Positions 4,085 to 15,931 of a stretch of DNA of 15,931 nt are shown one piece after another (within the stretch, counting starts at the first letter, position 1; each line of letters begins with the position of its first letter). A program made the position numbers and the translations under genes. Under the pieces are notes generated by a model. The model did not search any database and was not told the DNA's origin. It worked only from the letters and a program-made list of their open reading frames with translations. This stretch comes from a virus. The stretch is taken from UHGV virus genome UHGV-1804947; one strand, given 5' to 3'.

Positions 4085-5230
4085 TTAGCGAACAACGTTA
4101 ATCTGTACGTCAGCGTAATGAACCGCGCCTGCAAGTTTTATTGCAGCCTGAATCACCGGAGCCTTACGGGCTTCACGTTCTGATTGTGCCTGTTCATCCA
4201 GCGGCTGGGCGTATACGTAATAACCTTTGGGCAGTGTGTCACCTGATGACAACTGACCAAGGTCGCCCCCGTTCCATACGCCCGGAGCAATCAGTCCATT
4301 CTGAACGGCCTGATCCAGTGATTTTTCAACATTTGATAACAGTCGGGTAATACCGGCTTCAGTCTGGGGAACTTTCGTGGTGCTGGTATAAAGCAGGTTA
4401 TAGAGGTTGGTCTGCACATAATTCTGTAACCAGTCCAGGCCGTGGCGTTCATCAAAGAAATCGCCGTTAGCCATCACTCCCTGCTGGAGGATAGCTGTAT
4501 CATTCTGGTAGTACACGAACACATTGCAGTTTTTTGCATCAAGTGCCGATGCCTGGCTGACTGTCAGTGTTTCATACCCGACACCCGGCTCCTGCTTAAA
4601 CTTGAGCGTAATCGCGGTATTACTGCCATTGAAATTAACCGTGAATGCCCGGCCAAATGCAGATAACGCAGCGTATTTATTACCCGATGAATATTGAATA
4701 AAACTGCGTGAATATCCGGCGATTTTCAGTTTTGATGCCAAATCATCGCTGGATGCAGTCTGCAGGCATTTCTCATCGCTTGTCGTAATCGCCAGAATAC
4801 GGCTTACAGAAGAGGATTCGATCGCCGCAGCCACTTTCAGCCAGTCTGCATCCGGAATATCTTCATCGTCTGCAATCCCCAGCCCATACCATGAAGTATA
4901 ATCGAGCATGGCATTCACAGCCTGCTCCAGCGTCTCAGGCGTGGCCTGTTCGCTGTCTCCCTTCGTTTTCACCCAACGACCAACAAAAACCTCCTGAGGT
5001 TTCGGTGATTGAGAGAAAAACACCTGCGCAGCCTTATATTCTGGTGATTCCACGCCAAAATCTTTTCCAATATCTTCCGCGGCAGAATAACGGCGAATGC
5101 GCTCACTTACCGGAATGATTGTGGACGGGCCGAGAATGAGTAATGCACCAAAATTTCGCCCTGATGCTGCACGCGGCGACATGATCACATCAACATTAAC
5201 AACGTTTGATACAGGCAAGCCCTGTGCCAT
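4085..5230 (-). CDS. Tail sheath protein (381 aa)
   Basis: ORF immediately upstream of the tube gene. RBS GGAG lies 8 nt before ATG 5230. The sheath-tube-chaperone-TMP order is diagnostic of a contractile tail module. Family assignment is from memory and unverified. Confidence 0.6.
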
Positions 5231-13748: not shown

Positions 13749-14300
13749 TTAGCCCATCATTTTTCTATACGCCTCTGCAACCTGCTCCGGCGTTAAGTTG
13801 GTAATTTCTGTTCTGACTGGTCCTCCGTCAGCACCAGTCACTTCATTTTTGACATTGTCTTTAAACGCCTGAACAGAAACATGACGCCCGAGCAATTCAA
13901 GGTTTTTAACCTTATCAGGCCATTTGATTTTCTTCAGAAGTGCGGCGCTATCTGCGGATGCCATCTCCACGACATCCATTCCTGATAGCGTTGTGCGCCA
14001 TACCTTAGGCCAGTCTTTAATGGGCTTTAGCTCACCGTTTTGCAGGAGAATGTCGAGCACATCCATCTGGTCGATTTCAATAAGGCGATTAAGTACATAT
14101 TCTGCATTAATACCAATAAGATCATTGCGTTGCGCTTTCAGTTCGGCGATTCTTAACTTGATGTCAGGTTTTGACAGGTTTTCGGATGCGGTACGGTTAG
14201 CTGTCTTTGCGCTGTACCCCGCCCGAATAGCCGCTTGCGTGGCGTTTAAATCGATGAGGTACTCGCGACAGAACATTTCTTGCTTGTCAGTGAGTGCCAT
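13749..14300 (-). CDS. Terminase small subunit (183 aa)
   Basis: N-terminus [34 protein letters not shown] is the characteristic helix-turn-helix signature of this small-terminase family, recognised from memory. It lies immediately upstream of the large terminase. Confidence 0.85.
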
Positions 14301-14324
14301 AGTTTTCTCTAGAGGGTTTCTTTA

Positions 14325-14561
14325 ATGAACTCAAAGCAAATTTTTTACCGAAATACAGGTCATGATAATGAAACTTATATATTCCTGGACAAATTGGACA
14401 ATGGCTCCTACCAAGTCAGGGTTGGTCATTCGTCGCCTGTGAGCCATTTTGAATGGGAGGGTGATGAAACCATTCAGACAGTGGAAGAGTTTCTAGGTTC
14501 TAACCCATCATATACTGAACGTGTTCATCAACTAATTTCTGAGTTTGAAGCAGAATCGTAA
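14325..14561 (+). CDS. Hypothetical acidic protein (78 aa), candidate moron encoded antisense to the late operon
   Basis: The only long open frame in a visibly AT-rich segment. RBS GAGGG lies 8 nt upstream of the ATG. The opposite strand is full of stops. The protein has about 14 Asp/Glu against 5 Lys/Arg and no signal peptide or TM segment. No homolog recognised. Confidence 0.45.
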   Translation: MNSKQIFYRNTGHDNETYIFLDKLDNGSYQVRVGHSSPVSHFEWEGDETIQTVEEFLGSNPSYTERVHQLISEFEAES

Positions 14562-14927
14562 TCACCACCCAAGCGACTCAACTGATATCTAGTTCATCAT
14601 TACTAGGACTAAAAGTAGATTCCTGACATTGAGAATCTCTTTATCCGCTTGTGGGGATATCAGTTAAGTTATCCCGTGTAGGGTATAAGCCATTGTCGAG
14701 ACCACTCATTGAATGGTCTCTGCAATAACCGATGTCTTTCCATCAGTCCGCCACCACAAAGAATCTTTTTTGCCATAAGGCAGGAGGTTCATCTTTCAGT
14801 GGCTGCCAGTGTTATTTCCCCACTTACTGGCTTGGGTTGTTTCGCTGTATTGCCGTAACTGGTTTCCCAGAATAAATTCCGGTTTCATTATCAAGCCCAC
14901 CAGTAGATAGGCTTTGTAATGACATCT

Positions 14928-15452
14928 TCAATTAATCAGCAGTTCAGGCTGTGTCACCTGCAAGATGTATTCATGCTCGACAGCCAGGACACGCTTCTCT
15001 TTCTTCCGTTCGTTCATTAACCGACTGCCGATCGTACCTTTCAGCTTTGAGCGTGTTTCTTTGATGGCGTAGCGATGCTGCATTTCTTCGCCAATTGCCA
15101 TGCGGCGGCTCAGTTGCTCTGCCATCCAGTTGAATGCTGCGATATAGCTCTCCTTGATTGCCGCAGCAGCTTTCCCGGTGAACCCCATCACAACCATGAT
15201 CCAGCCATCTTTCGTCAGGCTGTACATCGGGCGAACCTTGCCCTGCTCATCGATATAATCAGCCGACGCAAAATTGCGTTGGCTAAACTCACGCGAGCAA
15301 TCAGCCTTAACCTGCTCGATTTTCCTGAGAACATCACCGTGTCGCTTGCCGAAGTACTTGGCAATTTTTCTGGATGTGGTAACGACCTCTCCGTTTTTGG
15401 CTTGCACCATTTCTCGGAAGTCGAAGGCTGGAATAACTGAATGATTATTCAT
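14928..15452 (-). CDS. rha: Phage regulatory protein Rha (174 aa from ATG 15452)
   Basis: The sequence MNNHSVIPAFDFREMVQAKNGEVVTTSRKIAKYFGKRHGDVLRKIEQ...RPMYSLTKDGWIMVVMGFTGKAAAAIKESYIAAFNWME matches the Rha-family pattern as I remember it. The start is placed at ATG 15452 (AAGGT SD upstream) rather than the track GTG at 15488, which has no SD. Its position between lysis and terminase genes parallels P22 orf201. Confidence 0.8.
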   Translation of the reverse strand: MNNHSVIPAFDFREMVQAKNGEVVTTSRKIAKYFGKRHGDVLRKIEQVKADCSREFSQRNFASADYIDEQGKVRPMYSLTKDGWIMVVMGFTGKAAAAIKESYIAAFNWMAEQLSRRMAIGEEMQHRYAIKETRSKLKGTIGSRLMNERKKEKRVLAVEHEYILQVTQPELLIN

Positions 15453-15600
15453 AGCGTCTTTACCTTTTAGAAAGTGAGCCTGTCTCACAGAAAAGCCGCC
15501 CCGAGATGGTCGCCACCATATACGACAGTTCTCAGGCTCAACTTTCTGAAAGGCTCGGGTGATGTAATATGCGCGTGAGATGCGCTGTGAAATTCAGATG

Positions 15601-15627
15601 TAAAAAAAGCCCCGCATCGCGAGGCTC
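15601..15627 (-). terminator. Intrinsic (rho-independent) terminator downstream of Rz
   Basis: Minus strand reads GCCUCGC-GAU-GCGGGGC followed by UUUUUUU: a 7-bp GC-rich stem with one G-U pair, a 3-nt loop and a 7-U tract, about 35 nt after the Rz stop. Confidence 0.55.
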
Positions 15628-15659
15628 ATTAAATGGACTTTGTGATTTGCAAAAAAAAA

Positions 15660-15931
15660 TTATTTCAGGCATTGCGTCCTGATGTACTCCTGCAGGTAGT
15701 TAACCTGCGCAGTTATCCTGTCGATTCCACTTCGGAGACGGTAATAATTGAGTTCAGCATCTGCTGTAAGTCTTGGGCTTTCTCCATCGCCCATGCTGCT
15801 GGCTCCGGTCGTTGACTTTGCACAGGTGGCGGCGACTTGCAGGCGCTTACGCCCAGCAGAAACATCAGCACGGAGGCTTTCGATAGTCGCGTTAGCATCA
15901 GCAAGCTCCTTTGTGTATCTGGCGTCGAGTT
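15660..15931 (-). CDS. Rz: Rz i-spanin, 5' partial (C-terminal about 90 codons in the window)
   Basis: The frame is open from the window edge to TAA at 15662..15660. Translation (...YTKELADANATIESLRADVSAGRKRLQVAATCAKSTTGASSMGDGESPRLTADAELNYYRLRSGIDRITAQVNYLQEYIRTQCLK) resembles the lambda Rz C-terminus as I recall it. The Rz1 gene is embedded in the +1 frame. Confidence 0.85.
   Translation of the reverse strand, partial: LDARYTKELADANATIESLRADVSAGRKRLQVAATCAKSTTGASSMGDGESPRLTADAELNYYRLRSGIDRITAQVNYLQEYIRTQCLK
15713..15898 (-). CDS. Rz1: Rz1 o-spanin (outer-membrane lipoprotein, 61 aa) embedded within Rz
   Basis: ATG 15898..15896 is preceded by AGGAG with a 7-nt spacer. It has a signal peptide with lipobox (LLGVSAC) and a Pro-rich mature region (KSPPPVQSQRPEPAAW). 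It lies wholly inside Rz in a different frame, the hallmark embedded-spanin arrangement. Confidence 0.8.
   Translation of the reverse strand: MLTRLSKASVLMFLLGVSACKSPPPVQSQRPEPAAWAMEKAQDLQQMLNSIITVSEVESTG

Follow-up and report, generated by a model that had tools for sequence, protein, structure and literature searches.

The morons of lambdoid phages, among them lambda bor and HK97 gene 15, are extra genes found in only some members of a group of related phages, and they are marked by a deviant base composition, by an orientation antisense to the late operon or independent of it, and by a −10 box and hairpin terminator of their own (PMC3594210). An antisense position among lytic genes is an accepted hallmark of accessory loci that are expressed in lysogens (PMC7067206; PMC3594210), and the criteria by which we judge a gene to be a moron were taken from these two papers. 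A different body of work bears on the product of the gene described here. In the PC4-like fold, the type II half-domain is a ββββα(α) chain that dimerises with a second copy of itself by swapping helices and that binds single-stranded nucleic acid (PMC7549692). The window that we analysed (15,931 nt of a viral genome, UHGV-1804947) carries an open reading frame for a 78-aa protein (ORF78; 14325-14561, plus strand; RefSeq 'hypothetical protein' WP_097365374) that resembles the morons in its setting and, according to structure prediction, the PC4-like half-domains in its fold. Our overall reading, to which we assign a probability of roughly one half, is that ORF78 is moron cargo produced in lysogens or early during infection, and that its product is a PC4/PUR-like dimer that binds nucleic acid or a protein handling it and plays a role in conflict.

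A chromosomal lambdoid prophage of Escherichia coli EH01-18-04-A is 100% identical to the window over the 801 bp tested (14200-15000), and its RefSeq annotation served as our gene map. The late operon lies on the minus strand in the order holin, lysozyme, lysis protein, Rha, terS, TerL, DUF1073 portal and head genes. The interval that holds ORF78 is bounded on the left by terS, the small terminase gene (13749-14300, minus strand; Terminase_2, Pfam E 7e-40), and on the right by rha (14928-15452, minus strand; Phage_pRha, Pfam E 2.6e-28); the coordinates and strands given for all three genes in a first-pass annotation made from the sequence alone proved correct. The start of rha is ambiguous, with the longest reading frame beginning at a GTG at 15488 (186 aa) and the RefSeq start being the ATG at 15452 (174 aa). 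In E. coli B C2566 (L036 1-25), the gene after TerL is named as a partial 'anti-CBASS protein Acb1 family protein', whereas sister prophages have the DUF1073 portal gene at this place, and the Acb1 name is possibly an artefact of naming.

Computation bears out the impression, earlier formed by eye, that the DNA between rha and terS is AT-rich. The GC content of 14301-14927 is 41.5% vs 52.4% for the whole window, and just 0.2% of segments of the same size reach a value this low. The same interval had been taken for a single 627-bp island, and here the boundaries had to be redrawn: it is composite, with cassette-specific DNA that stops near 14639 and a remainder made up of conserved lambdoid late-region sequence. 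The GC minimum of the entire window coincides with 14301-14639 (38.9%), and the GC3 of ORF78 is 0.34 vs 0.48 for terS, 0.57 for terL and 0.59 for rha. When the region was compared by megablast with 5,426 complete E. coli genomes, it resolved into two overlapping mosaic pieces, one extending from 14200 to ~14863 together with terS and the other running from ~14640-14654 onward together with rha, the latter being present in more than 2,000 of the genomes. Judged from these comparisons, the true inserted cassette is the AT-rich stretch of ~340 bp at 14301-14639. It begins with a 24-bp cassette-specific spacer (14301-14324) that differs with each cargo type and holds two ribosome-binding sites back to back, GAGA on the minus strand for terS and, on the plus strand, AGAGGG at 14311-14316 with the ORF78 ATG 8 nt further on, the latter being the site that had already been described as reasonable for the gene. 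Downstream of ORF78 on the plus strand lies a cassette-specific 3′ region (14562-14639), whose boundary was drawn by comparison with other genomes and phages. It can form a long-range stem (~14565-14575 with 14645-14655) enclosing two small hairpins, with an RNA folding energy of −24.6 kcal/mol and a z score of −2.2.

On its left side, the cassette begins precisely at the terS start codon. Among the loci compared at this boundary (L003, L014, L015, L036, L037, L039 and L040), prophages with different cargo are nearly identical inside terS, and their homology breaks at its CAT (14298-14300), directly past which divergence is complete. This terS (5′ 400 nt) is present in 251 of the 5,426 complete E. 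coli genomes and ORF78 in 12. Comparison of related prophages confirmed the suggestion that the slot would vary while its flanks are conserved, since at least five other unrelated cargoes, all on the plus strand, adjoin the same terS: a 90-aa membrane protein (phrog_14357), a 143-aa protein, a 182-aa protein in E. coli B and EPEC E2348/69 (2221-2769 in both L036 and L037), a 72-aa protein that we call family X (L039 2224-2442), and a pair consisting of YodC/DUF2158 and DUF6953. The slot beside this terS was also seen with a deletion scar of the 182-aa gene, and once with nothing annotated. All of the cargoes are antisense, have a GC content of 36-44% and start 19-27 bp from terS, and none has an assigned function. 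The YodC/DUF2158 and DUF6953 pair, phrog_14357 and the other cargoes thus share with ORF78 its insertion point, antisense orientation, small size and AT-richness, but they are unrelated to it in sequence (hhalign probabilities of 0.1-2%); hhalign gave no significant alignment of the ORF78 family profile with the 90-aa cargo, with DUF6953 or with family X. By this evidence the slot is exchangeable and is filled by unrelated antisense genes in sister prophages. The notion of a moron put forward in the first-pass annotation therefore holds in its main parts, a real gene of deviant composition that occupies a variable slot and runs antisense to the late operon, and with the boundaries redrawn it is essentially correct.

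Stubs of terS 5′ coding sequence (14-25 codons) lie beside ORF78 homologues or between cargo genes in three loci (L031 4946-4987, L010 ~972-1046 and L053 ~4900-4965), a pattern that points to recombination through the conserved stretch of terS as the way in which cargo is acquired. Two further observations concern the 182-aa cargo. One sister locus (L038, scar at 2202-2230) retains just the first two codons of its gene, and the protein bears YRG...TTD...ENE motifs that by eye resemble the R-S-E signature of ADP-ribosyltransferases; searches of this protein against Pfam, NCBIfam, PADLOC and the PDB gave no match. Taken by itself, ORF78 is one more hypothetical prophage accessory gene. The terS start codon, on the other hand, is a clean and recurrent slot for at least six unrelated, uncharacterised sets of AT-rich antisense cargo, in strains that include E. 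coli B and EPEC E2348/69, and as such it offers a compact hunting ground for functions expressed in the lysogen.

The ORF78 product has the properties first ascribed to it: it is acidic (pI 4.59, net charge −9), contains no cysteine and, on direct reading, lacks a hydrophobic N-terminus, consistent with a protein that is not secreted and is probably cytoplasmic. It also stands outside described families, as had been proposed, with no match among the Pfam, PHROG, NCBIfam and PADLOC models. Relatives of equal length were found down to 36% identity. When six DNA copies were compared by codon, dS was saturated and dN was 0.10-0.39 for pairs with 60-79% amino acid identity, and dN/dS was 0.045-0.085 for the pairs where it could be computed. 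This pattern of substitution shows that ORF78 encodes a protein and is subject to strong purifying selection, and we regard its status as a real accessory gene as highly probable. IS3-family elements sit inside ORF78 in several E. coli genomes (L007 5667-6835; L008; L009; L017 1234-2447), the disrupted copies being the truncated predictions of 50-66 aa (P0010, P0011 and P0013), and these insertions imply that the gene is dispensable to the lysogens concerned. Its absence from ~95% of prophages with the same terS likewise marks ORF78 as a dispensable gene.

The size of the family depends on the search. A word-indexed search returned 13 clusters and an exhaustive search eight true representatives at 50% identity, three further matches of the latter (P0020, P0022 and P0023) being long repeat proteins that were discarded as artefacts; a profile search then gave a total of 47 clusters at 90% identity. 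Apart from predictions that are truncated, disrupted by an IS element or extended at the N-terminus, members are 76-83 aa long. None of them has a name or a Pfam domain. The source records name as hosts Escherichia, Citrobacter, Enterobacter, Pantoea, Lonsdalea, Serratia, Providencia, Morganella and one Vibrio. A tblastn search with ORF78 found no match in 50,697 GenBank phages, and the family is present in 14 IMG/VR contigs. In metagenomic phages the homologue again adjoins a Terminase_2 terS, whatever the type of TerL. Other prophages also carry it antisense to the late operon, in the region that runs from the lysis genes to the packaging genes: Serratia marcescens has it between terS and terL, in Providencia it separates rha from DUF2560 and precedes a GP3_package terS, and in Morganella its neighbours are the lysis genes on one side and a lambda-type GpA terminase on the other. 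The variety of terminases beside these homologues indicates that the family is tied to a place in the genome rather than to one terminase. Two copies lie outside prophages, one in an island of Serratia aquatilis beside a weakly HEPN-like membrane protein and the other in a superintegron cassette of Vibrio diabolicus. From its distribution in sequence collections, the ORF78 family is a small, unplaced one that occurs mainly in lambdoid prophages of Enterobacterales.

Signals for expression are clearer in relatives than in the window. A consensus scan of 13900-15700 found no full sigma-70 promoter for the window copy. Direct reading points to a weak candidate for an extended −10 element, TGcCATAGT (14295-14303, plus strand), that overlaps the terS start codon, and spacers of the ORF78 type have CATAGT, CATAAT or CATAAC (4-5 of 6 positions matching a −10 box). 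A common promoter inside terS that would serve all cargo was considered and rejected, the candidate −10 being good only in ORF78-type spacers (2-5 of 6 across cargo types). In contexts other than terS, a perfect TATAAT is read 35-50 nt 5′ of the start codon in four loci (L047, L049, L051 and L018); the consensus scan was positive for L047 (TTTCCA-16-TATAAT with TG, 10/12) and L018 and negative at the threshold of the tool for L049 and L051. Relatives also have a hairpin directly past the stop codon, accompanied in L018, L049 and L053 by a T run, both again from direct reading. The 3′ region of the window copy is structured and lacks a canonical T-tract terminator. Candidate −10 boxes and hairpin terminators, of the kind known from the lambdoid morons, occur in members of the family; the window copy has no clear promoter or terminator. 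We consider autonomous transcription to be well supported by these motifs for the family and plausible for the window copy, and on balance we lean towards autonomous expression of ORF78.

An AlphaFold2 model of ORF78, based on an alignment of 16 sequences, has a pLDDT of 87 and a pTM of 0.70 and consists of four antiparallel strands (residues 2-11, 15-23, 29-40 and 43-52) followed by two helices (53-59 and 61-77). The six best Foldseek matches in the PDB are all Borrelia Pur-alpha structures (E 3.5e-3 to 1.7e-2, TM 0.52-0.60), the next being ssRNA-phage coat proteins, WHY2 and human PURA, and this set of matches corresponds to the membership list of the PC4-like fold (PMC7549692). In the model, a single chain of the ~70-85-residue class has the ββββα topology and superposes on solved PC4/PUR-like members. 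None of the 16 ORF78 family members examined matches the Pfam models for PurA, DUF3276, PC4, Whirly or DUF2128 at E <= 10, and a profile search against PDB sequences returned nothing below E ~1. With scores that are modest, ORF78 looks like a PC4/PUR fold in the model, and we do not file it as a member of any of these families. Borrelia burgdorferi Pur-alpha (Bpur; PDB 3n8b and 3nm7), YdbC/DUF2128 and the PC4-like protein of phage T5 are, like ORF78, single ββββα(α) units of 75-85 residues, and the T5 homologue also has the extra helix of ORF78. In contrast to Bpur and the other type II half-domains, to which it has no detectable sequence similarity, ORF78 is strongly acidic rather than basic. 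Judged by strand register, one face of the modelled sheet would present four invariant polar residues (E16, D22, R32 and S36) as well as K4, Y8, Y18 and F20, and the opposite face would be covered by the helices and a hydrophobic set (I19, L21, Y29, V31 and W44). Net charge across the family ranges from −3 to −9, the exception being P0015, an N-terminally extended prediction, at +1. The value of −9 is unusual for a nucleic-acid binder. What we have, in other words, is a family that cannot be placed, yet one with a confidently predicted fold of a nucleic-acid-binding class and an acidic character that is unusual for it.

In our reading, ORF78 is the cargo of an AT-rich moron cassette of ~340 bp that is inserted exactly at the start codon of terS and points against the late operon, and the sigma-70 polymerase of the host would transcribe it autonomously, as the TATAAT boxes and hairpin terminators of its relatives suggest. 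Given such transcription, the protein would probably appear in the lysogen or at an early stage of infection, and the opposing late transcription may then switch it off, as for lambda bor. The general position of bor past the lysis genes and its antisense orientation are like those of ORF78. There is no relation in sequence or fold, however, between the cytoplasmic, acidic ORF78 and either Bor, which is a lipoprotein, or HK97 gp15. The product would be a cytoplasmic ββββαα half-domain of the PC4/PUR-like type, most likely a homodimer, that may bind either single-stranded nucleic acid or a protein involved in nucleic-acid handling, and its likely arena would be conflict between phages or between phage and host defence rather than virion production. 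We offer the specific binding mechanism, that of a lysogen-expressed homodimer acting on single-stranded nucleic acid or its handling proteins in conflict with other phages or with host defence, as the mechanism that we favour most, though a tentative and rather doubtful one.

Other explanations of ORF78 fare less well. That it is a chance reading frame in a non-coding spacer, the null hypothesis, might be argued from the missing strong promoter of the window copy and from the rarity of the gene, but this is refuted by the pattern of substitution (dN/dS of ~0.05 with synonymous sites saturated) and sits badly with a reading frame and length retained in 47 clusters from nine genera and with the confident structure prediction; we regard its probability as negligible. 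An accessory role in packaging, as partner or regulator of this TerS, would account for the distance of 24-27 bp from terS in E. coli and in several metagenomic phages with differing TerL. However, ~95% of prophages with the same terS have unrelated cargo in place of ORF78, which lies on the strand opposite the late operon, and in other genera the homologues adjoin terminases of other types (GP3_package, lambda-type GpA) or separate terS from terL, with the copies in the Serratia chromosomal island and the Vibrio integron having no terminase nearby at all. We rejected a partner role specific to terS on this distribution, which largely refutes the packaging idea and leaves it highly improbable. 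It is hardly more credible that ORF78 is an immune-signal sponge similar to Lockin: a Foldseek match to Lockin-3'cADPR (9p8l; probability 0.8, TM ~0.5 over 48-50 residues) and the fact that Lockin proteins are small, beta-rich phage proteins are set against an E value of 1.3, which is not significant, against the hexameric architecture and positively charged pockets of this Thoeris sponge, where ORF78 is strongly acidic, and against an orientation and location unlike those of an early anti-defence gene.

The remaining alternatives revolve around family X. In the Vibrio superintegron cassette (L046 4762-5234), the ORF78 homologue overlaps, through ATGA, an upstream gene for an 80-aa protein. 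With an identity of 46% (E 3e-18), that protein is homologous to the 72-aa cargo which another E. coli prophage carries in the terS slot described here, and divergent members of family X (72-80 aa) lie inside type I restriction-modification loci in the order hsdS-DUF2188-X-hsdM (L054-L056). The two families occur together once among 57 loci, so we treat the link as a lead towards an interplay with restriction or defence and not as evidence of one. The earlier idea that ORF78 is a DNA mimic or an anti-defence protein remains speculation, and the predicted fold points instead to the nucleic-acid binders of the PC4/PUR type. A version adapted to that fold is that the PC4-like scaffold serves as a negatively charged mimic, an acidic decoy that titrates a DNA- or RNA-binding defence protein for an anti-restriction or other anti-defence purpose, perhaps together with family X or in the manner of it. 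A pI of 4.6 with a net charge of −9, the homology between the 80-aa Vibrio protein and the 72-aa terS-slot cargo, the co-encoding of the former with an ORF78 homologue and the occurrence of divergent family X in type I loci are all consistent with such a decoy. The association is nevertheless two steps removed and rests on that one co-occurrence among the 57 loci, PADLOC yields zero matches, the fold searches show no resemblance to known mimics, and antisense placement in the late region fits expression in the lysogen better than an early anti-defence role, so that we think a decoy unlikely. Distinctly unlikely, too, is the broader conjecture that ORF78 and family X belong together, as two parts or as alternative versions, in an as yet undescribed class of very small modulators that are mobile and are carried in phage terS slots, integrons and type I restriction-modification loci, with ORF78 as an acidic PC4/PUR-like decoy in restriction alleviation or superinfection exclusion. 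ORF78 might also be an orphan antitoxin-like protein, or one half of a two-gene module, with the other half (family X or some other gene) located elsewhere in the cell. The overlapping bicistronic arrangement in the Vibrio integron is like that of toxin-antitoxin cassettes and the protein is small and acidic, but the ORF78 family is solitary in 36 of 37 loci, the partner being found only in the Vibrio cassette; moreover, that partner carries almost no net charge (−1) and has no match among toxin families, and ORF78 does not have a DNA-binding antitoxin fold, all of which makes a two-gene module improbable. A 301-aa neighbour in L018 showed no similarity to the Bro-N protein of L054.

The part of the interval outside the cassette is of interest in its own right, for it holds a strikingly conserved and structured element of the lambdoid late operon that is apparently unannotated. 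It was delimited by alignment and phage matches to 14640-14921 (minus strand; core ~14690-14855), and it occurs at 80-99% identity in 207 GenBank phage records, including HK97, mEp235, P22, ST64T, epsilon34, ES18 and Kapi1, as well as in ~2,400 E. coli genomes. About 165 nt of the element are invariant in an alignment of nine copies (HK97, P22, ST64T and Kapi1 included), and the genes that flank these copies differ. The fold z score is −4.84 for the minus strand, which is that of the late mRNA, and −2.93 for the plus strand; an Rfam scan of 14100-15700 gave no match. Reading frames on both strands of the element are broken by 1-nt deletions in SW-70 and a 2-nt insertion in P22, from which we infer that the element is probably non-coding. 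A 35-aa frame on the minus strand (14669-14776), inside which the SW-70 deletions fall, and a 19-aa frame on the plus strand (14798-14857) were accordingly rejected as genes. The former is a 35-codon stub at the left end of the element that resembles the N-terminal extension annotated for ST64T orf118 (DUF2560; 91% identity over 35 aa by tblastn), is truncated on the side of the cassette and has CCTCC in place of a Shine-Dalgarno sequence before its ATG. A further structure of the late operon lies in the gap between the lysis gene and rha, where a strong hairpin of the intrinsic-terminator type (15607-15627, minus strand; GAGCCTCGCGATGCGGGGCTT followed by TTTTTT) raises the possibility that rha needs Q-mediated read-through or a promoter of its own.
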